From Clostridia bacterium (GTDB lineage: Bacteria; Bacillota; Clostridia; UBA1212; DUPL01): DNA of 64,000 nucleotides. The translations under genes and the position numbers were made by a program. Of the stretch, positions 28,245 through 57,161 are shown in pieces. Position 1 is the first letter of the stretch. Every line of letters begins with the position of its first letter. Location of the stretch: contig JBMNIW010000011.1 in NCBI GenBank assembly GCA_050951325.1, positions 86,190 through 150,189 of the forward strand. The letters are read 5' to 3'. The notes under the pieces are model-generated. The model had not been told where the DNA came from. It was given only the letters and a program-made list of their open reading frames with translations, and searched no databases.

Positions 28245-30116
28245 TTAGTCTTTGTTATTCATGATGATCTTCAACGCTTCCTCTACGGGTAAAGGTTGAT
28301 AATAGTAGTATCCTTGAATGGCATCGCACCCCAGTTCAATAAGATTTTGAACAGTATCCAGGGTTTCAGCACCTTCTCCAAAAACGGTCATGCTCATCTC
28401 ATGGCATATATCAATAATACCTTTGACCACTACTTTTCCTCTTTCCGTTTCAACTCTGTTTATAAGTTTTCTATCAATTTTCAGACCTTCAAACTCATAT
28501 TCGTACAAATCATCAAAAGAGGAGCCATAACCGAAATCATCCAGAACCACATGAATGCCGTCCTCCTTGATTCGCCTCAAGTTCTCATATGTTTTTGACA
28601 TGTCCTTTTGCAGATAGCTCTCCGTAACTTCAAGTATAAGGGTGTCGTGTTTGAAATTATGTTCATTTATTATACTCGTAACAGTTTCTACAAGTTTTTC
28701 GGACTCCAGAGTCTTCCTGGACAGATTAAAGGAAATAAAGAAGTCATCTATTCCTTGCTGATACAGATACTCAAGCAAAGAGCAGGTTCTATTCAGGATG
28801 TGGTAGTCAAGAATGGATGCCTTTCCTTCCCTCTCCAGTGCGTGAACAAATCTTTCAGGGAGAAGAATTCCCAGTCTTGGGTGGTGCCATCTGGCAAGAG
28901 CTTCAGCTCCAACGATTGAGTTGCTTTTGGGATCCACAAAGAAATGAAGGTAAAGCTTTATTTCTTCATTATAAATTGCCCTTTCAAAATTTTTCAAAAC
29001 TTCGGATTCTTCTTCCAGAGTATTAGCAATACTGTTGGAAAAGAAAGAATACTCTTTATCATTTCTTGCAGCATGCATGCACGCCTGCTCGGCTTTGAAC
29101 GCGATGTCCATTATGTCTTCATTGTGACTTTCCATGTTGCACACACCTGCATAAAAACAACTTGTTGCACCAGCCTGCCCTGCAATAAGATTATTAACCT
29201 TTTCTATGACAGAGGATAAAAATTGCTCCAGCTTAATATCACTGACACACATTTTAAGCATTAAAAAGGCATCGTCCTTTGCCCTTACCAGCAGATCGTA
29301 CTCTCCTTCATGGTCCGTCAGTACTCCTGCAGTTTTCTTGAGGATGTTGTCAATTTCACTACGGGAGCATAGTTCACCCAGCTTCCTCAGATCTATCCTG
29401 TAGTAAATGGCCTTGTATAGTACACAATTGTGTCTATTGACAATTTTTCTGTATATTCCCTCAAGTCCTGCCATGTTCACCATGTTTGTCAGAGAATCTG
29501 TTTCCAGAAACTTTTTTAAATTCCTGTACTTGCTACCTGTTACCAGAACAACAATAACAAGTGATGCAAGAAGAGCAAAGACAATGCTACCTGCTATCAT
29601 CTTGACAAGTGTGTTATTTCTAGCCTGGAATGAGTCAATACTTTCTAGCATTAGTCCATTCATCTTCTTCTCACTGATGTTGGATAGATATTCGGAAAGA
29701 GAGTTTGCCAGGTTATCATCCACAATTTCCGTAAGAAGAATGCGTATCTCTTTGTCTATACCCTGTCTTTCCGCACGAATAACCGTTATTCCTGCATTCC
29801 ATAACTCCTCGTCAAATCCGTCCTGCAGTTGACATCCTGAAACAAGCTCCACCTGCAGATTCTTCAACAGGTACTTTCTGTTGTCTTCTTCTCCCGGACG
29901 CAAATAGACGATTTCATACTGTGAGTTGTCCGAGAACTCTTTCAGAAGCTGCGGAATAACCCCTTTATATTCTTTATCCTTTGAGTCATAGTACTCAATT
30001 GGATAAAGATTCGGATTTCCCGCCACATACACCAGGGTTTTCTCCGCACCCCAAGTATCAGAAACCATTACAGTCAGCAATACAATTGCAATAATCAGTG
30101 CTGAAATTCTTTTCAT
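28245..30116 (-). CDS. Membrane-bound c-di-GMP phosphodiesterase (SBP-like sensor, degenerate GGDEF, EAL)
   Basis: YVAGNPNLYPIEY...YKGVIP (SBP_bac_3-like), TM helix, DSLTNMVN with GGDEF replaced by AKDDAF, then EALARW, SFN, LEVTE, LDDFG, LKID, EGAET, IQGYYY. Confidence 0.88.
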   Translation of the reverse strand: MKRISALIIAIVLLTVMVSDTWGAEKTLVYVAGNPNLYPIEYYDSKDKEYKGVIPQLLKEFSDNSQYEIVYLRPGEEDNRKYLLKNLQVELVSGCQLQDGFDEELWNAGITVIRAERQGIDKEIRILLTEIVDDNLANSLSEYLSNISEKKMNGLMLESIDSFQARNNTLVKMIAGSIVFALLASLVIVVLVTGSKYRNLKKFLETDSLTNMVNMAGLEGIYRKIVNRHNCVLYKAIYYRIDLRKLGELCSRSEIDNILKKTAGVLTDHEGEYDLLVRAKDDAFLMLKMCVSDIKLEQFLSSVIEKVNNLIAGQAGATSCFYAGVCNMESHNEDIMDIAFKAEQACMHAARNDKEYSFFSNSIANTLEEESEVLKNFERAIYNEEIKLYLHFFVDPKSNSIVGAEALARWHHPRLGILLPERFVHALEREGKASILDYHILNRTCSLLEYLYQQGIDDFFISFNLSRKTLESEKLVETVTSIINEHNFKHDTLILEVTESYLQKDMSKTYENLRRIKEDGIHVVLDDFGYGSSFDDLYEYEFEGLKIDRKLINRVETERGKVVVKGIIDICHEMSMTVFGEGAETLDTVQNLIELGCDAIQGYYYYQPLPVEEALKIIMNNKD

Positions 30117-30625
30117 ACACCCACCATCGTTTTCTTTTTCTTAAACAAGGTCAGCCTTTCTTTGGGCTCCGGTTCACTTATTTCCATCTCACTCTTAATA
30201 TCATGCATGTCTTCAAGCTTTTCATTTAATTCTTTGTCAAACTTCTCAAGAAGATTCCTTATATCCTCCCGTATACAACTTATTGATTCTTCATAAGATT
30301 CAAGCCTTTTCTTCTCCAAGCCATACTTTGACCTTAGTTTGGCTCTCATATCCTGTTCCATCTCATGTGTATCCTTCTTAATTTGAGATGCAAAATTTCT
30401 TGCTTCAACAATTGTCATAGATATAGCTTTCTGTACACTTTTCAATTCCTCGTTCTCCATCTCCAGCTCAATAATTCTCTGCTTAAGTTCCATGATTTCC
30501 TTTTTGTGAAGCTCTTCCTTTTCTTGAATTCTTTGCTCATACTTCTCGTTGAGTTTCATTACGTACCGGTATACACTCTCTTTGTTGTAGCCAAACAATC
30601 CTTTCTTCAGCTCGCTTAACAGCAT
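30113..30625 (-). CDS. DivIVA-like coiled-coil protein
   Basis: N-terminal LKKGLFGYNKESVYRYV resembles the DivIVA/GpsB membrane-binding motif; the rest is coiled coil (ISMTIVEARNFASQIK). Confidence 0.6.
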   Translation of the reverse strand: MLLSELKKGLFGYNKESVYRYVMKLNEKYEQRIQEKEELHKKEIMELKQRIIELEMENEELKSVQKAISMTIVEARNFASQIKKDTHEMEQDMRAKLRSKYGLEKKRLESYEESISCIREDIRNLLEKFDKELNEKLEDMHDIKSEMEISEPEPKERLTLFKKKKTMVGV

Positions 30626-30640
30626 GATTTCATCCCCCCA

Positions 30641-32053
30641 TCAGTTGTAGTCGATTTTCTTTCTCTCGATTCTTCCCCAAGTCCTTTTTACTTTGCGATA
30701 CCTGTTAATGGCAGTCATCCTCACCCATGAGATTATGAATCTCAGGAAGGACACTTCCACAACACTTAACAGGATTGCTTTACATGCATCTCTAAATCCT
30801 ATTTTAAGATTGATGGTTTGAACTCTTGAAAAAAAGGCTGTCAATGACAATATTGCTGCATAAAGAGCATATACAAGAAGAAACAGTATCATGAACCTTG
30901 TGTTCAATATGCCAACGACACCAGCCAGGAATATTGAAATCACTCCAAACACCTCAATGTATGGAGAAAGCAGCTCGTATATAAGAAAGTAGAGGTAAGA
31001 TACAAAACTCAACAACCCATATCCGGGGTTGAAGAACATTGTCTTATGAGTCATAAGGCTTTGAAGCAGACCAATCTGCCACCTTCTCCTCTGCTGCATA
31101 AGGTCCTTCATCTTTTCAGGTACCTGACTCCAACAGATGGCATCAGTCGCGTATCTTACCTGATAGTCAATATTGTGCTTCCTACAATACACATGAAGCT
31201 TTACCACCAGTTCCATGTCCTCTCCCAGAGTCCTGTCGTCATAACCTCCTGCAGCAATCACCACATCCTTCTTAAAGAGTCCGAAAGCTCCGGATATGAT
31301 CATGCTCCCGTTGAACTTGTCGAAAAATATTCTTGCAGCCAGAAACGATCTGTCATATTCCAGGACCTGCATGCATGCAAGCATGTTTTTAGGGAGTTTG
31401 AAGTCAACAACATGCCCGTCCACCAGTATTGCACCATTGCTAGGTCTAACAGCGCTGCCTACAGCAATTACTTTGTCGCTCATCAGTATCGGCTTAACTA
31501 TTTTTTCCAAAGAATCATACTGAAGTATTGAGTCTGCATCTATGCAAATAAAGTATGGGTAATTCGAAGAATTTATGCCCATGTTTAGAGCATCCGCCTT
31601 GCCTCCATTTACTTTCTTAATCAAGGTTATCGGAACTTTATACATATGGGTTTCATATACAAACACTTCAGGCTGGCATTCTATCTGAATCCTGATAGGC
31701 TTTTTTATCTTCTTCATGGAAAACTTTTCAATAAGGACTTCCGAAGTCAAATCGGTGGAACCGTCGTCAATAACGATAATCTCATACAACCCGTAGTCAA
31801 GAGCAAGAAGAGACTGTACCGTGGATACAATAGTCACTTCTTCATTGTGTGCGGGAACAAGTATGCTTATTGGTATGTACTGCGCATTGTCAAGCTCGTT
31901 TCTAAGAACATTCTGCCTTCTGTTTTGATATAGAGTGGTGGAACCCACTATAACCGAAAGAAACATGAATGTGGAATATCCAACAAGGTATATTATGAAA
32001 AAAAGCGCTATGTAATCGTATATCAGTTTAATAATATCAATATAGTTTTCCAT
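30641..32053 (-). CDS. Processive GT2 polysaccharide synthase (cellulose/PNAG synthase-like)
   Basis: DDGSTD, NGGKADALN, IDADS, GED and QRRRW motifs; N- and C-terminal TM helices. Confidence 0.92.
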   Translation of the reverse strand: MENYIDIIKLIYDYIALFFIIYLVGYSTFMFLSVIVGSTTLYQNRRQNVLRNELDNAQYIPISILVPAHNEEVTIVSTVQSLLALDYGLYEIIVIDDGSTDLTSEVLIEKFSMKKIKKPIRIQIECQPEVFVYETHMYKVPITLIKKVNGGKADALNMGINSSNYPYFICIDADSILQYDSLEKIVKPILMSDKVIAVGSAVRPSNGAILVDGHVVDFKLPKNMLACMQVLEYDRSFLAARIFFDKFNGSMIISGAFGLFKKDVVIAAGGYDDRTLGEDMELVVKLHVYCRKHNIDYQVRYATDAICWSQVPEKMKDLMQQRRRWQIGLLQSLMTHKTMFFNPGYGLLSFVSYLYFLIYELLSPYIEVFGVISIFLAGVVGILNTRFMILFLLVYALYAAILSLTAFFSRVQTINLKIGFRDACKAILLSVVEVSFLRFIISWVRMTAINRYRKVKRTWGRIERKKIDYN

Positions 32054-33174
32054 TAATTCACCACCTTGCTGTTACCATTGCTAATATTTGTCTCAATGCG
32101 ATACATTAGCATCTCTCTTGCATACTTGTCATATCCGTTTATTATATCAATGAGATTCAAATACTCCACTCCCAGAGACTTGAGGCTCTTTGCGGCATTG
32201 TACCTTACATGCCAGTTTGTGCTTTTCAATGCCTGCTTCAATGCATCAATCGATTCCTGCTCCCGGTAGCTGCCAAGACTCACCGCACTTATGGCTGCAT
32301 ATTCCCAGTTGTCTTCCGAGTTTTTAACGAAGTTTATTAAAAGGGGCAGACTTGGCTTATACGCATGTCTCCCAAAGTATCGAATAGCCGAAAAGTGCAG
32401 TTCCTTGTTAACAGACTCATCCTTTAGTATTCCCAGCATCTCCTCGTTGTAGCTTGAACTTACAAACCTTATGTAATTGAGAATAACCAACTTGATTTCA
32501 TCACTGAAACCATCAAGGTTGTCATACAGGATTCTGGTTAGATTTTCGTGGTCTCCAGTGAACTCGATTAGCATGTTTGTCAGTAGCTTTCCATGTATGT
32601 ACAGTTTTCTTCTGTCAATTATCTTCAACGCTAAAAGAACTTTTTCCTCATTACCGAAACTTATGAGTGCCTTTAGTGTATTCTGTCTTGTGTAGATACT
32701 GTCAAACTTCAAATATGCAAGCATTACCTCACCTATGGGATCGATAGGAAGGTCTTTTGCTATTCTGTACTTGCCAAGTACATGTGCAAGATATGCAGCT
32801 TTAATTGAATCCTTCTCAAGGTATTCAAAACCCAGGTGTATAAAAACCGAGTAAATCTCCTTGATGTATTCTTGCGCCAGTTCTGGTTTGTCCTGAAATG
32901 CTCTTTCCAACGCCCTGTCAAAAACCAAAAGATTGCCGACATGCACCAATGTCCTTTTCAAATATTTTTCATGGTACATGCATACAGGTTTTGATATGGC
33001 AATTTCATCCATCTGACATTTTATTTCATTGTACATTTTTACACTTCTTTTGCTTCTGCTTTTCTCCCGGTACCTGATTGCTACAGCGCAATATATGTTG
33101 AATAATATCATGGATACGCATATGATTAAATAACTGTATACCAGTATAAGAATATCCAACTCTACTCCTCCCAA
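32053..33174 (-). CDS. Membrane-anchored HEAT-repeat protein
   Basis: N-terminal TM helix; repeats such as SIDALKQALKSTNWHVRYNAAKSL. Confidence 0.85.
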   Translation of the reverse strand: MGGVELDILILVYSYLIICVSMILFNIYCAVAIRYREKSRSKRSVKMYNEIKCQMDEIAISKPVCMYHEKYLKRTLVHVGNLLVFDRALERAFQDKPELAQEYIKEIYSVFIHLGFEYLEKDSIKAAYLAHVLGKYRIAKDLPIDPIGEVMLAYLKFDSIYTRQNTLKALISFGNEEKVLLALKIIDRRKLYIHGKLLTNMLIEFTGDHENLTRILYDNLDGFSDEIKLVILNYIRFVSSSYNEEMLGILKDESVNKELHFSAIRYFGRHAYKPSLPLLINFVKNSEDNWEYAAISAVSLGSYREQESIDALKQALKSTNWHVRYNAAKSLKSLGVEYLNLIDIINGYDKYAREMLMYRIETNISNGNSKVVN

Positions 33175-33177
33175 ACC

Positions 33178-35301
33178 TTATGAATTTCTCCAATACTCCT
33201 GAAGTATGTAATATGAGGATTTAAGCCTTTCATGCCATGTTACCTTCTTACCCCATCCTTTCAGTTTGTACTCTCCCATTGGAATCCTCTCAGTGGAATC
33301 ACCAACGCCCACGTACATTCTGTCTATGGTAATATATTCAACTCCGTAGTGTTCGTAATAGTCGTCATGTATCTTCATCTCTGAAGGGTTTGCAAAGTTC
33401 AGAATCTGCCAGGGTAGTTTAAGCTCTATGTACTCCCCGTTGAAAATGTAATCTGCAAGGGAGTTGAAATCCTCTGATATAGGATTTGCATTTCCATAAA
33501 TGAGATGACCGGTTTCATACACCTCTGCCGGAGCATCAATATCGTCTGTAAGGAGGACCGTGGCCGTTTGCAGCATCAAGTTTATCTCCTTGAACATAGG
33601 AGTGTTTTTATCGATAATGTTCACATATGGGTCCTTTTTATGTGTTTCATGATAGTACATCGCTCTTAATACCTCATATCTCTCCTGAACCAGCACCCTT
33701 GAATTTTCATAGCCATCAATTACGATCACGAAATCACTTTCCCTTTCAAATTTAAGGTTGTAATTCAGACAATAATTACTTCCGGTTTTGGGTGTCGTAT
33801 CGATGGGAATGTATATCTTGTCCGTTTCAGGATTGAACCTGGGTTTATGTATGAGAAAGTATATGAACCGCTCATCATACATCATTGACAAACTCATGTT
33901 TTTGTTTTTACATACAATATGAGAGTCCTTCCATTCACTGATGTCTCCATCAACATAACATATGCTTTTTTCATCACCAGGATCAAACGACAGAAGACCG
34001 AAGTACTGCTCGTTTGTTTGATAGTCGCTCCAGTATGGGGTTTTATGCAAATCAACCGCATGCATGGTGTTCCAGGTTCTTTTGAACCATTCATCCTGCC
34101 ATGTAAAAACACAACCACCTGCAGCCCCTGCTTCCCTTATATCCTCAAAACAACGAACCAAAGCTTTTCCCTGATCTTTTTCAGACATGTATCCCTGGTT
34201 TCTGCCTGTATTTCTGTCCTTCTGCGCCATACCTCTACCTGTTGACACACCGAACTCGGCAATCACTACAGGTATGGCATGGTGCTCTACCAGCATTTTC
34301 AGATATGCAAGGTATGTGTTCAGTTCACCTTTTTCATCGATGAAACCGCTTTGGTCATCAAAATAAGCAAGATAATCCGGATAGTAAGGATATACATGAT
34401 ATGAGGCAAAAAAACCGGAAATAAACTTATCAGTAGTCCTTATGTTTTCAACATCAACCTTGGCACATTTCATGAAGAAACTTTCAATATCCTTTGGATA
34501 ATCAAACGGATCAGTGGTTGGCCAGTTAGTGAAAGCCACAAGTCTTTGCTGCTTGTATCTGACTGTCTCATACTCAATAATTTTATCTCCCACCTCGGCA
34601 AGAAGGGCTTCAAAGGGCGATGCATTTTCATCAGTGTACATATATTTACCCTGGTATCTGTTCCTCTCGGGATATTTTCTGTTTGTATACTCAACCGTTA
34701 CATCCTCCCACTCGACACCCAGGATATAACCTATCACCCATTGTGATATGTCCTTTAGATATCTGCCGGACCCGTAGGACGAGTTGTTGTATATCTTCTT
34801 ATTCCCATGAATTATGTCCACCACTGTTTTACAGTCAGATATGAACTTTTTTCTAAAGTCATCATGAAATGCATCCCGGCGGGAATTCTGAACATAGTCG
34901 TTGACCCACACTCCCTGAATCAGATACAAAGGGTCTTCCCTGTCTTTGTTGAACTCATAAAAGGCATTGTAAAAATCATCGTGCAGAACAGTGTACACCC
35001 TGATTGTGTTGGCACCCATATCCTTGATGTATTCAAACCATCTGATAAAAGTCTCTTTATCTATGGCGTAATCCGTAGCCCATTTACCCGGAATTCCAAG
35101 ACCCATGTTGACACCCTTTATTTCAAGTATCTCATACACTCCATCCTTGTTTATGTATATATTTTGGCCCTCCGTTTTTATAAAGGTCTCCGGTGGTTTG
35201 TTCGGATTGAAATCGATATATATACCCCATCTGTAATAAGCCATATCTGAGAGAACAAGCAAAAACACCACCAGGGATACAATAATTATGAATTTCTTCA
35301 T
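33178..35301 (-). CDS. Secreted clan GH-A-like (GH2/GH5-like) glycoside hydrolase
   Basis: Start MKKFIII at 35301 behind GGAGGG; IKGVNMG, MGANTIRVYT, LGVEWE (acid/base position), YHVYPYYP, VIAEFG (nucleophile position), FTWQDEW, NEQYFGL. Confidence 0.75.
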   Translation of the reverse strand: MKKFIIIVSLVVFLLVLSDMAYYRWGIYIDFNPNKPPETFIKTEGQNIYINKDGVYEILEIKGVNMGLGIPGKWATDYAIDKETFIRWFEYIKDMGANTIRVYTVLHDDFYNAFYEFNKDREDPLYLIQGVWVNDYVQNSRRDAFHDDFRKKFISDCKTVVDIIHGNKKIYNNSSYGSGRYLKDISQWVIGYILGVEWEDVTVEYTNRKYPERNRYQGKYMYTDENASPFEALLAEVGDKIIEYETVRYKQQRLVAFTNWPTTDPFDYPKDIESFFMKCAKVDVENIRTTDKFISGFFASYHVYPYYPDYLAYFDDQSGFIDEKGELNTYLAYLKMLVEHHAIPVVIAEFGVSTGRGMAQKDRNTGRNQGYMSEKDQGKALVRCFEDIREAGAAGGCVFTWQDEWFKRTWNTMHAVDLHKTPYWSDYQTNEQYFGLLSFDPGDEKSICYVDGDISEWKDSHIVCKNKNMSLSMMYDERFIYFLIHKPRFNPETDKIYIPIDTTPKTGSNYCLNYNLKFERESDFVIVIDGYENSRVLVQERYEVLRAMYYHETHKKDPYVNIIDKNTPMFKEINLMLQTATVLLTDDIDAPAEVYETGHLIYGNANPISEDFNSLADYIFNGEYIELKLPWQILNFANPSEMKIHDDYYEHYGVEYITIDRMYVGVGDSTERIPMGEYKLKGWGKKVTWHERLKSSYYILQEYWRNS

Positions 35302-35323
35302 TTTTCGTGGTTCCCTCCTGCAG

Positions 35324-36787
35324 CTAGTGATTGAACTTCTTGACTTTTGACTCATGGCCATATTGCTTTATGACCTCAATATGCTCATCCAACCATGCTC
35401 CTCTTATCATAATATGTTGTCGCATAAGCATGACCGCCTCTCCGTGACTTTTGGGATTTCGATCCTCACCAGCAACCAGATCGAGATCAAACGAATATCC
35501 CCAAACATCGAAATTTCTAACGATGGCTTCTCCCAGATATTTGATAACACTGTCGATATAATTGGCAAGGTACTCGTCACTAAGGACCCATTTTCTTAAC
35601 TCTCTGTATCGGTCAATTACCTTGTTACAGAAATACTCATCCTTCATTAGCATGAAGTACCATACCTTGTTTGGAAAAGCGAACTTAAAAGGATCCAGGA
35701 TGTCGTCCTGATAGTTGTTATGGGCAGAGTTGAAGTCCCAGATTACAAACTTGTATTTACCTCCCACATCCTTGTAAATATATGTTGAATATGCCACCGC
35801 ATCGTAATTGCTGGTAAACTCGTTGATAATAAAATAATCGACAAATGAATCCACATCGACGTACTTACGGTAACCATGTTTCTTTGAATCATAATCGTAG
35901 GAGTACAGTGCTTTTTCAAAATCTGAAAACTCTCTTTCAATAACTGTTTTCATCTCCTGTGTAAGGGTTGATGCCCTTGGATACTCGACGTCTAAAACAT
36001 GGTAATTTCTGAGTGCGTAGTTTGTAAATGCAGTTATATTTTTAAATTCATTTGTACTGCCCCTGTCAAGCCTGATAACATAACCTGTCTTGCCTGTATT
36101 GCCTATCGGCTCAGACAACTTCAACCTTGCATTTTTCGAAGAAGTTATTGTCTCTGTCATCAAGTACAGACCTAGGTACTCTCCGTTCAGAATAACTTCA
36201 CAAAATCGAACATTTGGGGCGTAGTCCATTATCTCTCCTGCTATGTTGTACCACATGTAATTCCTTATCAATGTCTTGTCAAGATACGGACCATGCAGCA
36301 CCCATTCATAATGGGGCTCCATGCCCATTACTTTAACATGTTTGTAACCCTCTCCGTTAACAAATCGTATTAGATAGTTTTTCTTGTCGAAATGTCTCGA
36401 GGTGTTTCCTCTAATACGTATTAATGCAGTTGAATCTATTGCAGGTTCATCACCCGGATGATTGTAGCTCTTTTCATTGTCTATAATCCTTATGGAGCTC
36501 GCAAGCATCCTCTCCCCGTCTTCTGTTAATGTGTATTTGATTCTGCCATCTTCTTTATACACTTCTCCGGGTATGTCAATGCCGCTGGTGTCGATTATCA
36601 CCAGTGGCAGGTGGGTGCAGAGTTCTTCATCCGTGTGAAGACATGCCTCTGTCGGTTTGGGGTAATGAAGATGCTGATGTATTCGTTTTGAGCTCTTACC
36701 TTTGGACATGTTGTTTGCAAAGGCCGACACGAAAATGACAAGGACAAAAAGGACAAATGCAATCAGTTTTTTCTTCAATGCAATCAA
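35324..36787 (-). CDS. CotH-family extracellular kinase
   Basis: Signal peptide; IRGNTS, KKNY, DKTLIRN, YLGLYLMTE, SFVDYFIINE, IWDFN. Confidence 0.88.
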   Translation of the reverse strand: MIALKKKLIAFVLFVLVIFVSAFANNMSKGKSSKRIHQHLHYPKPTEACLHTDEELCTHLPLVIIDTSGIDIPGEVYKEDGRIKYTLTEDGERMLASSIRIIDNEKSYNHPGDEPAIDSTALIRIRGNTSRHFDKKNYLIRFVNGEGYKHVKVMGMEPHYEWVLHGPYLDKTLIRNYMWYNIAGEIMDYAPNVRFCEVILNGEYLGLYLMTETITSSKNARLKLSEPIGNTGKTGYVIRLDRGSTNEFKNITAFTNYALRNYHVLDVEYPRASTLTQEMKTVIEREFSDFEKALYSYDYDSKKHGYRKYVDVDSFVDYFIINEFTSNYDAVAYSTYIYKDVGGKYKFVIWDFNSAHNNYQDDILDPFKFAFPNKVWYFMLMKDEYFCNKVIDRYRELRKWVLSDEYLANYIDSVIKYLGEAIVRNFDVWGYSFDLDLVAGEDRNPKSHGEAVMLMRQHIMIRGAWLDEHIEVIKQYGHESKVKKFNH

Positions 36788-36792
36788 TCCTT

Positions 36793-37470
36793 TCAGCCTG
36801 AAATGTCTTCATTTTGAGCAATTATGTTTACATAGTCTACATTGCCAATCTCGTATATTGCATCCGTTATGCTCTTATCTTCTTTGTCGGAGTTTTTAAA
36901 GGTCTTCTTCGACATCTCGTAGATGTATTCAACTGTTTCTTTTCCTGTGTTTTTCGCCTTAAGGTTTGCCTTGTGCATGAAATATTGGAAAACCACAGCT
37001 TCGATTCTCTTCTCATTGGAACGTGACGCTCTAATGACCAATATTACACGATCATCATTTTTAAGTCTTCCAAAGAATAAAAGAATCAAGAACACAAGGA
37101 AGCTTCCCAATGACGCAACAATAAAATCACCCACTCCACAACATATGCCGACAATTATGGTCCAGAATATGAACACGGTATCTCTAGGATCCTTTATTGC
37201 GGTTCTGTATCTGACTATGGACAGTGCACCTACCATGCCTAAAGATAGGACAATATTGTTTCCTATAACCAACATTACCGTAGTGGTCAGCACGGTTAGC
37301 ACAACCAAGGATACATTGAACCTCCTGCTGTAAACACTCAAGTCATGAGAAAGCCAGTAGGTAAAATATATTATTATGGCAATTACTAGAGAAACCAGCA
37401 ATCTAAGCAGAATATCCGACGCTTCCAAACTGCCTGTCTGTTCAAACAACTGGTATATGTACTGTCTCAT
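36793..37470 (-). CDS. DUF4956 membrane protein
   Basis: IGNNIVLSLGMVGALSIVRYRTAIKDPRDTVFIFW. Confidence 0.92.
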   Translation of the reverse strand: MRQYIYQLFEQTGSLEASDILLRLLVSLVIAIIIYFTYWLSHDLSVYSRRFNVSLVVLTVLTTTVMLVIGNNIVLSLGMVGALSIVRYRTAIKDPRDTVFIFWTIIVGICCGVGDFIVASLGSFLVFLILLFFGRLKNDDRVILVIRASRSNEKRIEAVVFQYFMHKANLKAKNTGKETVEYIYEMSKKTFKNSDKEDKSITDAIYEIGNVDYVNIIAQNEDISG

Positions 37471-37502
37471 ATGTCACAATTCCTCTCCTTCGCTATATGT
37501 AT

Positions 37503-38186
37503 TTATCTTAAAATGACTCTTGCCATGCAATATTTGCTGATTGACAACTCCATTTTATTAGAAATGCTTGTAATGTCTTTAATGTAACCCGGTAGAAAAC
37601 CATTGAACTTTACTTCCAATATATCGTTGAATTTCTCCGCAACCGGATATAGAAGCAGATTTTCAGAAAACAGGTTATAACATGACTCAGTCGCTTTTAA
37701 ATCCGAGTCTATGGTTATGCGGACGTCATTTTCATTTGCAACGAATGCGGTTCTGTTATACTCAACTATGATTCTCGGCCGGTAACAGTATGTGTTTAAA
37801 ATGTAGAAGAGTTCTGTTGCAAGGCTTTCTTTATACTCAAGCAGAACATGATATTTCCCGCTGACTACTGCCTGAGCATCTTCCCTGCTGATAGCAAGGG
37901 ATCTTTTTCTCTGATACGAACCTTGCTTTTGCTTGATTTCAAATTTCGCAATTTCGCTGTCAGGACTGTACGTTCTTAACCTTATTTTGTGTCTATTAAA
38001 AACACCCATGTCCTTTTCCTGATAATCCTTGTCATATGGAGTGTCAAAGTACAACGTTCGAACCATGTAGCCTGTATCTTTATTATGCTTGTCTTCCATC
38101 ATTATTCTTTTCATTATGGCTATAAGTTTTGAAGATTCAATCTTGTTTATCTGATACTTCTTCTCCTGTCTTAATACTTCCTTCAA
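37503..38186 (-). CDS. VTC-domain (polyphosphate polymerase-like, CYTH superfamily) protein
   Basis: RQEKKY, YMVRTLYFDT, RHKIRLRTY, FEIKQK, YNRTAF, VRITID, ILEVKF, SISKY; TTG start at 38186 behind GGGAGG. Confidence 0.9.
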   Translation of the reverse strand: MKEVLRQEKKYQINKIESSKLIAIMKRIMMEDKHNKDTGYMVRTLYFDTPYDKDYQEKDMGVFNRHKIRLRTYSPDSEIAKFEIKQKQGSYQRKRSLAISREDAQAVVSGKYHVLLEYKESLATELFYILNTYCYRPRIIVEYNRTAFVANENDVRITIDSDLKATESCYNLFSENLLLYPVAEKFNDILEVKFNGFLPGYIKDITSISNKMELSISKYCMARVILR

Positions 38187-38205
38187 CTTAACAACCTCCC
38201 GAAAC

Positions 38206-38241
38206 AAAAAAAGACTGCAATTATTATTAAAATAATTGCAG
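38206..38241 (-). terminator. Riboswitch expression-platform terminator
   Basis: Minus strand CTGCAATTATT-TTAAT-AATAATTGCAG-TCTTTTTTT; its 5' arm overlaps the 3' end of the aptamer. Confidence 0.85.
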
Positions 38242-38315
38242 CCTGTCGATCATAGCATTATGCTTTAGATACATGGCTTTGCGTCTCCACCTTTCGGAGG
38301 ATTTGCCTTTTGTAT
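38235..38315 (-). ncRNA. c-di-GMP-I (GEMM) riboswitch
   Basis: Minus strand AAAGGCAAA-TCCTCC-GAAA-GGTGGA-GACGCAAAGCC-ATGTATCTAA-AGCATAATGCT-ATGATCGACAGGCTGC shows the GGCAAA / GAAA tetraloop / GACGCAAAG / CTAA...ATG receptor pattern; the downstream operon contains an EAL gene. Confidence 0.92.
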
Positions 38316-38341
38316 AAGTTTACATTTTGATCTACTCATTG

Positions 38342-39268
38342 TCAATACCCTTGAATAAATTTTTTGATAATTTCTTTTTTTACTTTTCTTTCCTTTATAA
38401 TTTCATCTTTAACATTCCCGAACAACATCTCTCCAAGGGGATCATGTTTTATAAATCTTGCCTTGCAACTGTCAATACTGTAATTGGCGTAACAGTATAT
38501 ACATCCATTCATACATGTATTATACACACCAATATCGATACTCTCCACGCATCCGCAGTTTTTTCTCTGGCTTCTGTCTTGTTTAACGTTCAAGCCATAT
38601 CCACATATGGACTCAACCAGCTCCTTGTCAATGCAACTTGACTTCTGTATACCATATGCGGTCAAATCCAGTTCTTCACAACAAGCTTTTGGAGCAAGAC
38701 CATATTCTCTTGCAGTTTTACCCATGAACTCAGAAAGTTCGAAAATCTCCTCAATTGCAATGTCACGAACATAATCACTTTTAATCTTTGAGTACCTGTC
38801 TACATAACTGACTACAACGATTTTTGTGTGTGAAGCCAATCTTTCACAAAGATATGCAAACTGTCTCTTGTGATAATCAATATCAATATAATGTGCAAGA
38901 AGAACAGGGTCGTATCTCCACACAACCTTATCCTTGCCTATCATTTCAGACAGCTCGATGAACGTTTTGACTACATCATTCTTGTCTCGCATGTTTCGTT
39001 CAATATCCTTACCGTAAGGCGTAAGTGTAAACTGAAAATAGTATTTGTAACCCATGTCATCTACTTCGGAAAGATACGGGAGAAAGTTTTTAGGATCCTT
39101 TGTCCAGAACACAATACAGTCCACCACATCACTCCCAAGAGGTGTTTTGTACACCTGAGAATGATTGAAAGGGTTCCTTACGAGCACGTATCCTTCTTTC
39201 AGTCTGTTTAAAAACCACTGTCCGTAGTGACAGGGAATGTCGGTCCACCTTGATGCAGATATTATCAT
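38342..39268 (-). CDS. DUF1848 family protein
   Basis: MIISASRWTDIP, VFWTKDP, WRYDP, CGCVESIDIGVYNTCMNGCIYCYAN; true start at 39268. Confidence 0.9.
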   Translation of the reverse strand: MIISASRWTDIPCHYGQWFLNRLKEGYVLVRNPFNHSQVYKTPLGSDVVDCIVFWTKDPKNFLPYLSEVDDMGYKYYFQFTLTPYGKDIERNMRDKNDVVKTFIELSEMIGKDKVVWRYDPVLLAHYIDIDYHKRQFAYLCERLASHTKIVVVSYVDRYSKIKSDYVRDIAIEEIFELSEFMGKTAREYGLAPKACCEELDLTAYGIQKSSCIDKELVESICGYGLNVKQDRSQRKNCGCVESIDIGVYNTCMNGCIYCYANYSIDSCKARFIKHDPLGEMLFGNVKDEIIKERKVKKEIIKKFIQGY

Positions 39269-40460: not shown

Positions 40461-42933
40461 CTAGATTGTTCCAAGTATGTATCTTCTTGCAAAGAACTTC
40501 ATACTTCCCATTCGTTTTCTTTCAATATTCGCAAAGTCGTTGTATGTGTCAAGCATTGCCTTTGCATCCTGCTTATCAATGGAATCCCGAGAGTATCTAG
40601 CCTTGTTAAACAGCAGGGCTGCCCTCTTGTAAACTTCCCGCATTCCCTCGGCTTCAAAGAAACCACTGTTCTCAAGGAGATGTTCATACTCCGGAAGGGT
40701 AAAGGATGGATTCCTCTTGACATAATATCGTCCTATGACCTTCTCCATCCGTTTGAATACATAGATAACATAGCTTCTGCTGTCCATTTTGGTGATTTTA
40801 CCGAAGAACCATTTTACTCTCAATACCATAACAGATACACACAGGGCAATGACAGCCAAAACCATAAGCATTATCTTCAAGAACTTGATTATTGCTTCGT
40901 TAAAAACCGGTGTCGGGTCATCAACATCATCATCAGGTGTTGGACTTGGTTTAGGAGAAGCTGTTACCGGTGCTTCCGTCGGCTCCTCGGTCGGGGTTCC
41001 TTCCACAGTTGGTTCCGGTGTTGGCTCAGGTGTCAGCTCAGGTGTAGGACTTGCATCAGGTACTTCTACAGGATTCGGTCCCTCAAAGGAAGCAGTTGGC
41101 TCAAACTCCACAAATCCTAAACCTTCAAGATACACTTCAGGCCATGCATGCGCATTGGAACCAGGCACATCGAACCTGCCTCCGCCCTGATAGTTCTCAT
41201 CCTTAACTACAAAACCCTCAACGTATCTGGTAGGTACGCCCACACATCTCAATAGAATAGTCATCGCTGTTGCATAGTAGGTGCAGTAGCCTTCCTTTGA
41301 CTCGAACAGGAAATAGTCAACAAAGTCATATCCTTTTGGAACATCTCCTGGTGTAAGGGTATATTTATAGTTGTTTTTCAAATACTGCTCGATTGCTATT
41401 GCCTTCTCGTAATCGGAGTTTGCATTCTTTGTTAACTCATGAGCAAGTACGCGGACCCTGTCAGGCAGGTTAACAGGCAGCTGCAAATATTTCTTGTAAA
41501 ACGCCTTGCTCCTGTTGGATAGATTTATCACGTCGGTGCCAATATCTGCCGGACTTTTCAAGGTTACACTTTCATAGTCAACGTATACGGGGCGTCCCAG
41601 CCACGGGTCGTCAAAGTATCCCTGTCCTGCAAGATTCAATACTTTTTTGTAATATGGCGATGTTTCGTTGTAGACGTACGCTTCTACAAAATATGCACCG
41701 TGTTCGGGAATTGCAAAGTTGTATCTCAACTTTTCATGTCCATCAAGAAACAGTTCCCTAACCTCATTCTGCCATGGAACACCCTTGAAATATACATCTA
41801 CCCTTGTTCTTGAAAAATCTATTCGATAGGTTTTTGACATTGTAAAAAAGTTTCTTGCCCTTAATGGCCTTTCATGTCTCACCAACACATTTATGGTCTT
41901 GTAGTTCTCTCTTTGTTCCAGTATTTCCAAATATGTGTTTACCCCAAGAACCCTTTCCAGCTCAGGCATACGAACCTCAACTGTGCTGGATGATAGCTCT
42001 ATACGGGTATAGGATTGATAGCTGCTCCACTTCCTCCCGTTGTAGTCCTCGTATGCCACGCCTCCCAGATATATTCCGGAGTGGTCGCTGTATACTGTCA
42101 ACATTTTCGCATTGTTTAATTTAACGTCTCCACCTAGTTCACCGGAGTTCCCAAAGCCCATGGAAGACAGATTGAAGATCTCTCCAAGTTCACTTGTCGA
42201 TATCAGAAGGCTTTCCAAACCAACTGTTGAATCTCATCTCCAGGGAGTTTAACAAGCGGTCTGAATAGCTGCCAAGCAGTGGTCCTGCCCCTATGTTGGT
42301 GACAGTCAAAAGCACATATATGAGTATATATGACAGAAACATGTTGAATGTCATCTTGGGCGGCGTTATTATCATCTGCCTGTTTAACTCACTGGCACTC
42401 AGGTAAAGGGATGAATTTCTTTCAAGCATGTAAATTGCGTACAGCGCCACCAGAAGGACAATAAAATTTCCAACAGGAAAACCGTATCCTGCAATTATTA
42501 CACCCGTTACTATTCCCGCCAGGAACAGAAAACACATCAAAAAGCTTGTGTATATTACAATAAAGCTGTACAAGAAGCAGGTAATTCCAAAAACGACAAC
42601 ATATGAAGGTATCCTGCTGTTGCTCATCTTGTAAATCAGCACGGACGGTGACAAGTCTCTGTTTGAAAAAAGAAACAGTATGAACAGGATGAACAATGCA
42701 ACTGCAAAAATATATATTACATATCTAAAGGATTTGTTGTATGTATACAGAAGCAGAATTCCTGTAAAAAAGAACGTATACATCAAGACCTCTATTATGA
42801 ATATAGGTCTTGCCAGTGTATCCATGATGGGAATTAGTACCACAATGGCAATAAAGGTTTGAATCAAACATTTCAAAATTACATCTGTCGGAGACTCTTT
42901 CAGCTCCAGACTTCTCTTAAGCCTGCCTTTCAT
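40461..42933 (-). CDS. Membrane transglutaminase-like protein (TgpA-type), split by a frameshift near 42190-42220
   Basis: TM-rich N-terminal ORF 42190..42933 overlaps ORF 40461..42218, which carries GYCTYYA, AHAWPE, FEPT, a PT linker and a TM helix. Confidence 0.8.
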
Positions 42934-42936
42934 AAA

Positions 42937-44211
42937 TCAAAACGCCTCCAAACTTTCCTGCGTGTCATCTTTAACATTGATTGTCATAAACTTGTGGCAC
43001 AATTCTTTTGCCTTCTCTGCCATTACAAGATCCAACCCGTCGTCTGCAACGTATACCATGGCCACCTTGAAGCCAAAGTGGTTAAGCTCCTTGATTGAGT
43101 ACAGAAGTCTTTCAGTTATGTTTGCAGTAAATATGTAAACTACGGAACGTATGTTGTCGGCTCTTGCTACAAACTCCGACAAAGAGGAATGGCTTTCTAT
43201 ATTGTCCGCATTAAACGGCAGTGATGCCAAAAGATAGTATACGCCGTCAAAATCGGCTTCGTTGTCGCAATACGCTACCTCAATTTCATCACCCTGCGCA
43301 TACATGAAATTGTATGGAATGCGGAGTCCTACAAAAAAGTTACAGACACTGGCACATGCTTCCGACAACTTGTCGACAATCTCAAATCTCGACAAGCTTT
43401 GGCTTTTAAATAACGGTAGTGAGTTGTCAAAAAATATGCACAATCTGCTGCTTTGGGTTGCGTAATATTTTTTACTCATTAGCTTGTTTAGCCTTGATGT
43501 CGCTTTCCAATGTATGGTGCGCATGCTGTCCTGTTCCTGATACTCCCTTATTTCAATGGAATCGGAGTAATCAGTGGAGTCCCTTGCCATCAGCCCCAGT
43601 TGCTCTTCCTCTTTACGTTTTACATCGTCGAAATCCCTAAGAAGGAATATTTCAGGGTACACTGTCAGAGTAATTTTGCCTTTGAACCTTTTACGCCTGT
43701 AGCGAATACCTAAATCATCCCAGACATGTATTGTATCAGCACCAACGGTGTACTGGCCTCTGTAGGGGCAGTGCAATGCATATTTGAATATATTGTGGGA
43801 AAACGATTTGAGTCCGAATACCAGCATTCTGTCATATTCCTTGGGAAGAACTATCCCTTCGTCGATATCTATGTACATTTTGCACACTGGATATGTAAAC
43901 ATAAACCTATTGTATATTTCCGTCTTTATTGTTACTCTGCTGCCTTTCATCGCCTTGAAGTTCCTGTTTTTTAGCTCCTTTACCCAGACTGCGAATCGGG
44001 CGACAAATAGCTTTATATCAGACAATATTAATATCAATCCGATACACACGACAAGAAGATTTATGTATAGATTTCCTATAAACAAACTAACAATCAGGAG
44101 GGCGGAGTACAGTATCCGGAAAACAATAATTAGGAAGCGGGCGGTTTTTGTATATGCCCGTTTCCTGTCCCTTCTCCTATCGCGCCAGATTTCCTTCAAT
44201 GAAATTGTCAT
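42937..44211 (-). CDS. DUF58 protein
   Basis: YRGQYTVG, VYPEI, IREYQEQDSMRTIHWKATSR. Confidence 0.9.
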   Translation of the reverse strand: MTISLKEIWRDRRRDRKRAYTKTARFLIIVFRILYSALLIVSLFIGNLYINLLVVCIGLILILSDIKLFVARFAVWVKELKNRNFKAMKGSRVTIKTEIYNRFMFTYPVCKMYIDIDEGIVLPKEYDRMLVFGLKSFSHNIFKYALHCPYRGQYTVGADTIHVWDDLGIRYRRKRFKGKITLTVYPEIFLLRDFDDVKRKEEEQLGLMARDSTDYSDSIEIREYQEQDSMRTIHWKATSRLNKLMSKKYYATQSSRLCIFFDNSLPLFKSQSLSRFEIVDKLSEACASVCNFFVGLRIPYNFMYAQGDEIEVAYCDNEADFDGVYYLLASLPFNADNIESHSSLSEFVARADNIRSVVYIFTANITERLLYSIKELNHFGFKVAMVYVADDGLDLVMAEKAKELCHKFMTINVKDDTQESLEAF

Positions 44212-44215
44212 ATGC

Positions 44216-45217
44216 CTACATCCCTATGTTTACTTTGCTAAGAATTGATTCAATTACTTCCTCAGGCTGCACACGCCTTATTTTTGCCTCCTTGTTCAGA
44301 ATTATCCTGTGGCAAAGAACCGGAATTGCAGCACTCTTTACGTCTTCAGGCAGCACATAGTTTCTTCCAGCCAAATACGCAAACGCCTGGGATGCACGTC
44401 CTAGTGCAATACTTCCTCTCGGGCTTACACCAAGCAATATGTCCTGGTTGTTTCTTGTTTCATTCGCTACTCCAACTATGTACAATGCCAGACTGTCTTC
44501 TATATGTACATTGCTAACTTCTTCCTGTATTCTCAGGATGTCCTTCTTTGTGGCAACAGGTTTCAACTGTTTTATAAAATGGGAATTCATCTGCTGTTTT
44601 ACAATGTGTGCTTCATCCTGGTTTGAGGGATATCCCATTTGTATTTTCATAAAGAACCTGTCCAGCTGAGCTTCTGGCAGCGGGTAGGTTCCCAAATGCT
44701 CTATGGGGTTCTGGGTTGCCATTACCATGAACGGCTGCTCTATTTTATATGTAACGCCTTCCACTGAAACGCTTCCTTCCTGCATCGCTTCCAGAAGGCT
44801 TGATTGTGTCTTTGGTGATGTTCTGTTAATTTCATCCGCCAAAAGGAAGTTGCAGTCAACCGCCCCCGGCCTGAATTCAAACTCTCCGGTCTTTCTGTTG
44901 TACACTGAAAAACCTGTTATGTCGGACGGTAGTACATCCGGCGTGAAGGATATGCGCTTGAATGTAGCATTTATGCTGGATGCAAGGGAAGATATGAGGC
45001 TTGTCTTTCCAACACCCGGCACGTCCTCAATCAATAGATGCCCCTTGCTTATCAGAGTTATTAACGCAAGTTTGACTGCTTCAGTCTTGCCGACAATGCA
45101 CTTCTCGATGTTCTCAATGATCCTTTCAATTACCTCGTATGAGTTTGAGACTGGGGGCGTTTCAATGTTTTTCAAATCCTTCTTTGCAACTTCCACTTTT
45201 TTCACTCTCCAAATCAA
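44216..45217 (-). CDS. moxR: MoxR-family AAA+ ATPase
   Basis: [61 protein letters not shown]; start may be a GTG slightly downstream. Confidence 0.93.
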
Positions 45218-57085: not shown

Positions 57086-57161
57086 CGAGGTGTGGCGCAG
57101 CTGGGAGCGCGCGTGGTTTGGGACCATGAGGCCGCAGGTTCAATCCCTGTCACCTCGACCA
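57086..57161 (+). tRNA. tRNA-Pro (anticodon TGG)
   Basis: 76 nt; acceptor stem CGAGGTG/CACCTCG, anticodon arm CGTGG-TTTGGGA-CCATG, GGTTCAA T-loop, encoded CCA. Confidence 0.97.

Follow-up and report, generated by a model that had tools for sequence, protein, structure and literature searches.

The VTC, DUF4956 and CotH genes at the head of a riboswitch-led operon

The window analysed here is a 64,000 nt stretch of the Clostridia bacterium contig JBMNIW010000011.1, in which the ORFs for a VTC-domain protein, a DUF4956 protein and a CotH-family protein were all found on the minus strand (Table 1). The intergenic gaps are 32 bp for VTC/DUF4956 and 5 bp for DUF4956/CotH, and the following five junctions range from -38 to +15 bp, indicating that these genes form one operon. 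VTC, DUF4956 and CotH are the first three genes of this eight-gene GT2 polysaccharide operon, which lies downstream of a c-di-GMP-I riboswitch and a terminator. VTC starts with a TTG codon preceded by a GGAGG site, and the likely start of the fourth gene, as judged from its RBS, is at 35301.

Table 1. Features of the operon and its leader in the window, in order of transcription
Feature	Position	Strand	Evidence or remark
Sigma-70-like promoter candidate	38317..38345	-	Consensus match only (10/12); just upstream of the riboswitch
c-di-GMP-I riboswitch aptamer	38234..38317	-	Rfam RF01051, 76.8 bits, E 2.4e-13
Intrinsic terminator, 5′ arm overlapping the aptamer 3′ strand	38205..38244	-	Predicted ON switch
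VTC-domain enzyme (Vtc4-like triphosphate tunnel), 227 aa, cytoplasmic; candidate polyP polymerase	37503..38186	-	PF09359 E 2.6e-39
MgtC/SapB-like DUF4956 protein of 225 aa, with five membrane helices and an ACT domain at the C-terminus	36793..37470	-	PF16316 E 9.7e-11
CotH-family kinase, N-terminal signal or anchor, 487 aa	35324..36787	-	PF08757 E 4.5e-55
Membrane-anchored protein, ~710-727 aa, probable glycoside hydrolase or transglycosylase	33178..35361	-	Weak GH72, conserved E217/E369
N-anchored HEAT-repeat protein	32053..33174	-	PF13646; hydropathy
Processive GT2 polysaccharide synthase	30641..32053	-	DxD, GED, QxxRW motifs
DivIVA-like coiled-coil protein	30113..30625	-	PF05103 below cut-off
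GGDEF-EAL protein bound to the membrane, GGDEF degenerate; probable phosphodiesterase for c-di-GMP or receptor of it	28245..30116	-	

The RF01051 match lies above the gathering score and is followed by an expression platform, a 14-bp terminator hairpin (38244-38212) with a U-tract, which identifies the element as a c-di-GMP-I riboswitch. Bases of the aptamer 3′ closing strand are shared with the 5′ arm of the terminator, and from this overlap an ON switch is predicted. The promoter candidate is of a kind found 44 times against 39 expected in shuffles. Of 80 related loci, 17 also have a c-di-GMP-I motif ahead of VTC, and Rfam confirmed it in all nine of the motif-positive loci tested. The original prediction, which placed this CotH under c-di-GMP control and outside a spore-coat context, is borne out on both points, the predicted aptamer and terminator leading the operon and the neighbours being polysaccharide genes, none of them spore-coat genes.

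The operon would make a c-di-GMP-induced surface polysaccharide by means of the GT2 synthase, its HEAT partner and the anchored glycosidase. The GT2 protein matched the PgaC/IcaA model with an E of 1.2e-39, yet below the cut-off of that model; no match to Pel families was obtained among the 11 window proteins scanned, and the pelDEA(DA)FG genes that define a Gram-positive Pel operon are not contiguous with the trio. Pfam, NCBIfam and PDB sequence searches returned no match for the ~727-aa protein, weak GH72 matches were obtained in 9 of 30 homologues, E217 and E369 are conserved, and its Atlas neighbours, at lead level only, were GH5/GH42 plus CBM9 proteins. For this protein a hydrolase-type fold was favoured, and its Atlas name, 'family 2 glycosyl transferase', was discarded. 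The DivIVA-like coiled-coil gene is present in a minority of the related loci.

Predicted properties of the three proteins

VTC had been described as a cytoplasmic protein without a signal peptide, and in agreement with this no hydrophobic segment was found, the maximum 19-residue hydropathy being 0.55. Foldseek searches with the VTC model placed Vtc4, Vtc3 or Vtc2 at ranks 1-13 among the matches listed (best E 1.1e-13, TM 0.76), with the best other TTM at E 1.6e-7 and TM 0.57. The VIA Z scores were 18.9 for Vtc4 (rmsd 3.0, 218 aligned), 17.1 for BH2851 and 15.2 for ygiF, and the structural score of the inactive Vtc2 against the VTC model was as high as that of Vtc4. By these comparisons the window VTC is closer to the yeast polymerase Vtc4 than to TTM triphosphatases or cyclases, a placement that is new here. 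The triphosphate and Mn ligands of Vtc4, K200, R264, R266, K281, Y359, R361, E426, S457 and K458 (10.1101/2023.01.27.525886), correspond to K10, R69, R71, K85, Y143, R145, E191, S217 and K218 of the window VTC, respectively, three of these placements being less firm, as E191 was mapped from a sub-threshold alignment and S217 and K218 from structural-alignment end-points. Eight of the nine positions are invariant in 61/61 sequences and S217 is kept in 59/61; the invariant ones include K218, the equivalent of K458, which active Vtc4 has and inactive Vtc2/3 lack (10.1101/2023.01.27.525886). When the C-terminal piece of VTC was searched as a profile, no solved structure matched. With all nine ligand positions occupied in the alignments, the active site appears complete, also a new observation. 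Many tunnel ligands are common to Vtc4 and triphosphatases.

For DUF4956, the AlphaFold2 model (pLDDT 87) contains five membrane-length helices (17-41, 49-69, 73-89, 95-113 and 116-134), as expected of the multi-TM protein originally proposed, followed by a C-terminal ACT-like domain. The PF02308 (MgtC) score was 26.7 bits, below the curated cut-off of 31.4, and a weak PF02308 match was obtained in 54 of 105 DUF4956 homologues. The ACT part matched the MgtC C-terminal domains 2lqj and 7qa5, the latter with a Z of 9.5 (rmsd 3.2, 85 aligned) that ties with other ferredoxin-like folds. A helical membrane bundle with an ACT-like C-terminus is the MgtC/SapB architecture, and MgtC has been described as a regulator of ATP synthase and PhoR. 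At each of N72, S76, S84 and R87 of helix 3 and R89, K93, D94 and D97 of the next loop, no fewer than 96 of the 105 diverse homologues compared keep the residue or its charge class, and a conserved mid-membrane charge was absent from this set. In the model, the invariant Arg/Lys lie where a polar-striped helix is predicted to reach the cytoplasm; in Vtc1, basic rings lie at the cytoplasmic mouth (10.1101/2023.01.27.525886). Fold searches with the DUF4956 model returned no Vtc1 or Vtc4 membrane domain among matches that were filled by the ACT domain and barely probed the membrane part, and an Atlas search with the membrane part gave leads below 0.8 only. A complex prediction with three DUF4956 copies and VTC reached a median of 0.20 against a mark of 0.32, which is evidence neither way. 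DUF4956 is best described as a probable MgtC/SapB-type protein that is not recognisable as a Vtc1 relative, and with its five helices and ACT domain it would be no more than an analogue of the Vtc1 pore. The earlier proposal of a channel analogous to the TM pore of yeast VTC is weakened by the MgtC-type assignment (PF02308, ACT); a basic cytoplasmic cluster is present in DUF4956.

CotH, proposed to be exported, carries N-terminal lysines followed by a hydrophobic helix, a feature shared by 56 of 56 CotH-family ORFs from related loci, and its export is predicted from this hydropathy. Its profile matched B. cereus CotH 5jd9 with an E of 2.4e-18. With residue roles taken from 10.1101/469122 and the 5jd9 alignment, the catalytic Asp, the WD motif and the nucleotide-binding Arg were found within the PF08757 match, which assigns the protein to the family; R126 is R/K in 54/55 sequences, E212 is present in 55/55, and D329, W350 and D351 in 54/55 each. 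The adenine-sandwich Trp is kept; opposite Tyr142, the second aromatic of the sandwich, the window protein has I238, and a conserved Tyr stands two positions before it, so that the placement of this Tyr is ambiguous. The kept residues correspond to the nucleotide site of B. cereus CotH, and most of the ATP site is retained. The Asn five residues past the B. cereus CotH catalytic Asp, a metal ligand, is Ser/Thr in 50/55 subfamily sequences. Characterised Bacillus CotH uses ATP as donor and proteins as acceptors. In all 13 cellulose-type loci, CotH bears a second membrane anchor at its C-terminus, resembling in this the synthase partner CcsB. A different EPS cluster pairs a CotH protein with a conserved adjoining ATP-ADP antiporter (PMC8250860), which fits the idea that an exported CotH needs a donor exporter.

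Distribution and linkage of the cassette

DUF4956 proteins form 5,544 clusters at 50% identity. Six-frame profile searches of 80 DUF4956 loci found VTC in all 80, directly adjoining in 76, and reciprocally DUF4956 adjoined 8 of 8 VTC matches from plasmid and phage collections; at two distant Bacteroidota DUF4956 genes, VTC was absent within 8 kb. Among the 70 loci left intact by contig ends, the third partner was CotH in 62, Cthe_2159 in 5 (with a lipoprotein-like N-terminus in 4 of them) and neither in 3. Since VTC is present throughout and CotH or Cthe_2159 alternate beside it, the VTC-DUF4956 dyad is the fixed core of the cassette and the third partner is exchangeable, which is new here. 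These counts, together with a second pair in C. perfringens NELoc-2 that has no CotH of its own, show CotH to be replaceable. The nameable third partner is extracytoplasmic, and the cassette lies beside glycan-synthesis genes in most complete loci.

The contexts comprised GT2 with a hydrolase in 30/80 loci, cellulose-type genes in 13/80, and WecB in 3/80 plus locus L044. According to PMC12345266, the trio was not found outside Pel loci; the trio-type cassette nevertheless lies beside GT2 synthases in 43/80 loci, and its service in GT2/hydrolase, cellulose-type and WecB loci, reported here for the first time, contradicts the Pel-only statement. Two-component genes of the OmpR/PhoB type adjoin five dyad loci, none assignable (PhoBR, metal sensing) above cut-off. 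Among 25 longer DUF4956 proteins, a VTC domain was found in 3 and CotH in 4; seven fusion candidates were read, and P0280 was the only intact VTC-DUF4956 tandem, so that fusion proteins may lend weak backing to the linkage. P0272, P0276, P0277 and P0290 were rejected as true fusions, as they look like deletion or frameshift chimeras. In trees covering 43/80 loci, built to see whether CotH tracks the synthase type more closely than the dyad, the synthase-type label changed twice for CotH, twice for DUF4956 and five times for VTC, with weak support that makes them uninformative. A link to Xanthomonas xagABC was sought and was not established.

Possible roles of the dyad and comparison with known systems

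The original prediction joined the three proteins in a trans-membrane phosphate relay. The Vtc4 likeness, the near-inseparable dyad and the extracytoplasmic third partner beside glycan-synthesis genes speak for it; the MgtC-type DUF4956, the replaceable CotH with its kept ATP site and the S. intermedius deletions weaken it. We tentatively prefer the reading that a membrane-coupled, polyP-synthesising dyad may supply an exported kinase, which would act on the glycan or on the synthase that makes it, the first three genes being a putative plug-in modification cassette with the dyad as core. VTC would probably convert ATP to polyP or a short phosphoanhydride. Somewhat short of an even chance, overall, is given to the next step, in which VTC would dock on a DUF4956 oligomer and its product pass outward, as in a functional analogue, not a homologue, of the Vtc1/3/4 pore. 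The exported CotH may then draw on this supply, directly or after ATP regeneration, and phosphorylate either the growing glycan or a subunit of the synthase complex that is itself exported; in Cthe_2159 loci, a different surface protein would be supplied by the dyad. Unlikely in our judgement is a more far-reaching form, in which VTC and a DUF4956 oligomer with an MgtC-type pore would be the split bacterial equivalent of the polymerase-translocase for polyP in eukaryotes, threading polyP outward to a CotH that uses it, not ATP, on Pel, cellulose and GT2 glycans. Evidence against the preferred reading includes the kept CotH ATP site, the dispensability of CotH, the grouping of DUF4956 with MgtC and its lack of a conserved mid-membrane charge, the lone Bacteroidota DUF4956, the high structural score of inactive Vtc2, the tunnel ligands common to triphosphatases, the less firm placement of E191, S217 and K218, and the S. 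intermedius deletions.

Genetic data on the S. intermedius counterparts of cotH, PPP and DUF4956 (SIR_1594, SIR_1593 and SIR_1592, respectively) come from PMC12345266, according to which the strain deleted for the polymerase SIR_1593 still aggregates, with no defect reported there, deletion of SIR_1592 raises the Pel signal and that of SIR_1594 lowers it. Deletion of the DUF4956 or CotH orthologue altered Pel level and aggregation, a point in favour of the preferred reading, in assays whose scope did not extend to phosphate on the polymer. These deletions do not phenocopy one another, which argues against a strict relay. The opposite effects of the DUF4956 and CotH deletions, with none reported for the polymerase, would rather suit a regulatory module, on balance a doubtful explanation, in which MgtC-like DUF4956 works by protein contact and ACT sensing, VTC gives a cytoplasmic output (polyP or nucleotide turnover), CotH acts on the synthase from outside, supporting it or phosphorylating it with ATP from elsewhere, and nothing crosses DUF4956. 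The MgtC-type fold with its ACT domain, the CcsB-like C-terminal anchor of the cellulose-type CotH proteins and the proposal, in PMC7112168, that protein phosphorylation regulates Pel synthesis all fit such a module. In this module, however, no phosphoryl donor is provided for the exported kinase, and the cassette is retained where c-di-GMP already governs the operon through riboswitch, PilZ and EAL genes; moreover, no Ser/Thr-rich repeat substrate was found in the six operon proteins screened (maximum 8 S/T per 30 residues).

A dyad that never varies beside a third partner that is swapped for a non-kinase or missing might instead mean that the polyP is exported for its own sake, as an anionic matrix component that binds metals, and that CotH or Cthe_2159 binds, tethers or trims it without use as a kinase donor. 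The OmpR/PhoB-type genes beside five dyad loci, none of them assignable above cut-off, and the Asn to Ser/Thr exchange in CotH are compatible with this, but 54/55 CotH sequences retain both the catalytic and the metal-binding aspartate and the polymerase deletion had no reported aggregation defect, and we regard this explanation as distinctly unlikely. Quite improbable is a VTC that acts as a membrane-tethered triphosphatase or has another TTM activity (cyclase, phosphotransferase), makes no polyP, and belongs to three genes that aid polysaccharide synthesis by separate routes. Characterised bacterial TTMs are described as short-chain polyphosphatases (10.1101/567040), and the VIA margin over BH2851 is just 1.8 Z. 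Against this, Vtc4 ranked first by a wide margin in sequence profile and Foldseek searches, and a lone hydrolase does not account for the constant linkage to a membrane protein. The residues near the N-terminus divide: the Glu at position 8, which is Thr in Vtc4, speaks for this alternative, and the Arg at position 6, matching Vtc4 R196 and not the first Glu of the TTM motif ExExK, speaks against it.

Synthesis of polyP has been attributed to PPK1/PPK2 in bacteria and to the VTC route in eukaryotes (10.1101/567040). If the preferred reading is true, the dyad would represent a third bacterial polyP route and a polyP exporter, approachable with two small proteins, and would answer how an exported kinase is fuelled; were the polyP relay on an MgtC-type pore true as well, it would amount to a portable system for phosphorylating glycans, and the MgtC-like fold would gain a transport function. 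The cassette is common to three separate observations that lacked an explanation, those of the Pel accessory genes, of NELoc-2 and of the cellulose-type clostridial loci, and the corrected distribution, with a dyad core, a swappable third partner and many synthases, alters the reading of the published knock-outs even if the relay is wrong.

DUF4956 resembles MgtC/SapB proteins in its weak PF02308 match and its C-terminal ACT structural matches, and differs from them in falling below the Pfam cut-off, in its own invariant Arg/Lys loop and in its tight VTC linkage. The window CotH shares with Bacillus spore-coat CotH (5jd9) the kinase fold and the R, K, E, D, W and D site residues, whereas it has a signal or anchor helix, an extra N-terminal region and the Asn to Ser/Thr exchange, and no cotG/cotB-like repeat substrate lies near it. 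With the yeast VTC complex (Vtc4/Vtc3/Vtc1), the locus has in common the tunnel fold, the nine ligand positions and a genetic tie between the catalytic domain and a small membrane protein that has basic residues on its cytoplasmic side; unlike its yeast counterparts, the window VTC is soluble and separate, without SPX or membrane domain (227 aa, PF09359 only), and its partner is MgtC-like with five helices and ACT, in contrast to the three-helix Vtc1, the far side being the cell surface and not the vacuole.

Both the trio as a Gram-positive Pel accessory and the NELoc-2 six-gene block are already in print. The Pel accessory genes cotH, PPP and DUF4956 are left functionally unexplained in PMC7112168, and the authors of that paper and PMC12345266 tie them loosely to phosphate metabolism, proposing no relay or channel in the portions available. 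Like the window genes, they encode a secreted CotH, a polyP polymerase domain and an MgtC-TM protein with ACT, contiguous with an exopolysaccharide operon and adjacent to a glycoside hydrolase; in contrast to the Pel loci, the window has a GT2 synthase with HEAT and hydrolase partners, and a riboswitch leads the operon. In C. perfringens NELoc-2, CP4_0463-0468 (PMC2879425) follow the same order of VTC, membrane protein, CotH, ~700-aa hypothetical, HEAT and GT2, with sizes of 230, 222, 497, 685, 377 and 466 aa against 227, 225, 487, 727, 373 and 470 in the window, a likeness of order, annotation and length between unaligned sequences. The membrane protein is annotated there as 'tubulin/FtsZ' with no function assigned. 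NELoc-2 alone has the extra CotH-less VTC-membrane-protein pair and sigma/anti-sigma genes, whereas the window has the riboswitch and the EAL gene.

Operon organisation and the upstream aptamer

The three ORFs lie at the originally given coordinates, on the minus strand, and their Pfam matches agree (see the table). Eight genes follow one another here with junctions between −38 and +32 bp, the trio being the first three. Genes 4–8 encode, in order, an anchored protein of 727 aa, a HEAT protein, a GT2 synthase (DxD, GED and QxxRW motifs present), a coiled-coil protein and a GGDEF-EAL protein whose EAL motif is intact. Hydropathy and model predictions agreed with a cytoplasmic VTC, a multi-TM DUF4956 and an exported CotH. 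Immediately 5′ of the operon, Rfam identified a c-di-GMP-I aptamer (76.8 bits). The strand that closes the aptamer at its 3′ end is shared in part with the 5′ arm of a terminator, so read-through is predicted with the ligand bound, in line with the proposed c-di-GMP control of the CotH operon. The GGDEF-EAL protein would provide negative feedback on this ON switch. A riboswitch-like motif was found 5′ of VTC in 17 of 80 related loci (the best 80 of at least 589 confirmed); Rfam confirmed 9/9 motif-positive loci tested and detected no riboswitch in the single comparison locus lacking the motif upstream of VTC.

Features of the window and of two related loci (L018, L023), each in its own coordinates
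Feature	Position	Strand	Remark
VTC	37503-38186	−	Pfam E 2.6e-39
DUF4956	36793-37470	−	Pfam E 9.7e-11
CotH	35324-36787	−	Pfam E 4.5e-55
727-aa protein	33178-35361	−	Likely start 35301; uncharacterised ~710-aa family
DivIVA-like coiled-coil gene and membrane GGDEF(degenerate)-EAL gene	28245-30625	−	Operon end
ArsB/CitMHS-type anion transporter	26809-28092	−	152 bp past operon; not kept in related loci
DUF1848	38342-39256	−	Just 5′ of candidate riboswitch promoter
MoxR ATPase, DUF58, transglutaminase-like gene set	40461-45217	−	No relation to trio
One tRNA gene	57086-57158	+	
SLH-anchored polysaccharide deacetylase, L018	4977-6722		Between VTC and DUF4956
SLH-anchored polysaccharide deacetylase, L023	8202-9998		Between VTC and DUF4956; Pfam-typed

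A VTC–DUF4956 dyad with varying partners

A GTDB genome scan gave at least 600 matches, at least 589 of them confirmed, and the best 80 of these were analysed as loci, a sample biased toward close relatives, mostly Bacillota, with 10 loci ending at contig edges. Among these best 80, VTC was present in all and adjacent to DUF4956 in 76, CotH occurred in 62 (60 by profile, L054 and L058 by Pfam), Cthe_2159 in five others (two on the opposite strand), and neither in three complete loci. Reciprocally, DUF4956 adjoined 8/8 VTC matches in plasmid and phage collections. Contexts among the best 80 of at least 589 comprised GT2 with the 727-aa family (30 loci), cellulose-type GT2-PilZ with MBOAT or GH5 (13) and WecB (three, plus L044); the trio was also found in a Pseudobutyrivibrio EPS cluster and in one actinomycete. 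The evidence favours a fixed VTC–DUF4956 dyad with an exchangeable exported partner, serving as a plug-in for unrelated polysaccharide synthases.

Cthe_2159 takes CotH's place beside the dyad in L064, L068, L069, L070, L073 and L083; the dyad-linked proteins are mostly predicted lipoproteins, often with an adjacent OmpR/PhoB-type two-component pair. In L054, L058, L067, L076, L079 and L089 the CotH beside the dyad is of a second type, carrying lamin-tail and Fn3-associated domains, and the genes are arranged differently; some of these loci also have a separate gene for a lamin-tail protein. On plasmids, two of the six DUF4956 matches, both distant Bacteroidota, had no VTC within 8 kb and adjoin TolC or HlyD genes. 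Distant Bacteroidota DUF4956 genes (L084, L085 and B. thetaiotaomicron BT3498-99, the latter from PMC10434189) lie beside TolC, HlyD or DUF2490 genes, neighbours hinting at export through two membranes.

The ~710-aa family gave GH72-like matches in 9/30 members and has conserved glutamates E217 and E369, with which its automatic name, 'family 2 glycosyl transferase', is at odds. With HEAT and GT2 it constitutes a putative undescribed synthase-dependent polysaccharide system (30 of the best 80 of at least 589 loci). A second, C-terminal CotH membrane anchor was predicted in 13/13 cellulose-type loci (L026, L029, L031, L034, L035, L037, L039, L041, L045, L046, L047, L049, L057) versus 0/28 GT2/hydrolase loci. 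CcsB has been described with such a two-anchor topology (PMC7710045), and since 11 of the 13 blocks contain no unassigned ORF, CotH may by analogy occupy CcsB's position; the main text of that paper mentions neither CotH, VTC nor polyphosphate.

Predicted sites of the three proteins

Among solved structures, a 61-sequence VTC profile had its best relative in Vtc4 (E 1.2e-10); it matched none of the other TTM families. With the VTC model (pLDDT 93.7), Foldseek ranked Vtc4 top (E 1.1e-13, TM 0.76; next TTM E 1.6e-7, TM 0.57), and VIA-align gave Vtc4 Z 18.9, a tie with inactive Vtc2, followed by BH2851 (17.1) and ygiF (15.2). Nine Vtc4 residues bind triphosphate and Mn, and K458 distinguishes Vtc4 from Vtc2/3 (10.1101/2023.01.27.525886). 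Their equivalents are K10, R69, R71, K85, Y143, R145, E191, S217 and K218, eight invariant (61/61) and S217 in 59/61; six could be placed by direct alignment, E191 by a piece of the alignment below threshold, and S217/K218 rest on structural-alignment end-points (227 to 467). The fold ranking and ligand set favour a polymerase over a simple triphosphatase; simple hydrolysis or some other TTM activity is an improbable alternative.

The DUF4956 model comprises five helices long enough to span the membrane, plus an ACT-like domain. Weak PF02308 MgtC matches were obtained for 54/105 homologues, and MgtC C-terminal domains topped the structural matches, tied with other ferredoxin-like folds. Near-invariant R87, R89, K93, D94 and D97 would face the cytoplasm if the ACT domain does; the helix ending near them bears a polar stripe that is also conserved (N72, S76, S84), an arrangement that would suit either a pore mouth or a VTC docking site. 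Given the MgtC-like signal and the lack of any conserved mid-membrane charge among the homologues, the originally proposed likeness to the Vtc1 pore is at most an analogy.

A 55-sequence CotH profile aligned with B. cereus CotH 5jd9 (E 2.4e-18), and the nucleotide and catalytic site is largely intact: 49–55 of 55 sequences retain R126, K135, E212, D329, W350 and D351. Five residues past the catalytic Asp, at the position of a metal-binding Asn, 50/55 carry Ser/Thr, which could reflect another donor or acceptor. Bacillus CotH uses ATP as donor and proteins as acceptors, with adenine between Tyr142 and Trp245 (10.1101/469122); here the stacking Trp is kept, whereas the Tyr142 equivalent aligns ambiguously. 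None of the six operon proteins screened has the Ser/Thr-rich repeats of a substrate, the maximum being 8 S/T per 30 residues.

Possible roles and comparison with known systems

The most economical single account is a loosened form of the original relay, in which the dyad would synthesise and export a phosphoanhydride donor and CotH would use it to modify either the glycan or the synthase complex; we hold it tentatively. A strict version, in which polyP itself serves to phosphorylate the glycan, seems unlikely. As described in PMC12345266, all three single deletions still produce Pel. Deleting DUF4956 or CotH costs more than half of the aggregation seen in sputum medium, Pel signal rising in the former case and falling in the latter, and the polymerase deletion has no reported defect. 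A regulatory role, in which MgtC-like DUF4956 acts by protein contact and nothing crosses the membrane through it, fits these knock-outs better than the loosened relay but leaves the exported kinase unfuelled, and is somewhat doubtful. Exported polyP as the end product agrees with an exchangeable third partner and is rather unlikely. Alternative fuelling of exported CotH is possible by an ATP-ADP antiporter, whose gene is a conserved neighbour of a CotH-domain protein in the Zetaproteobacteria sfz EPS cluster (PMC8250860).

The trio is real, and already known but unexplained. cotH, polyphosphate polymerase and DUF4956 are accessory genes of Gram-positive Pel loci, for which regulation through protein phosphorylation was suggested (PMC7112168; further related literature in 10.1101/567040, PMC13454231 and PMC3826837). 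In the literature covered, which takes in few subscription journals or bioRxiv supplements, no proposal of a polyP relay or channel for the trio was found. New here are its spread beyond Pel loci, the dyad as its core, a Vtc4-type site predicted to be complete and the correspondence to NELoc-2. The statement in PMC12345266 that the trio was not found outside Pel loci is contradicted by the locus counts among the best 80. C. perfringens NELoc-2 has the same six-gene order as the window, with the membrane protein named tubulin/FtsZ and an extra second pair without CotH (PMC2879425, PMC11677781).
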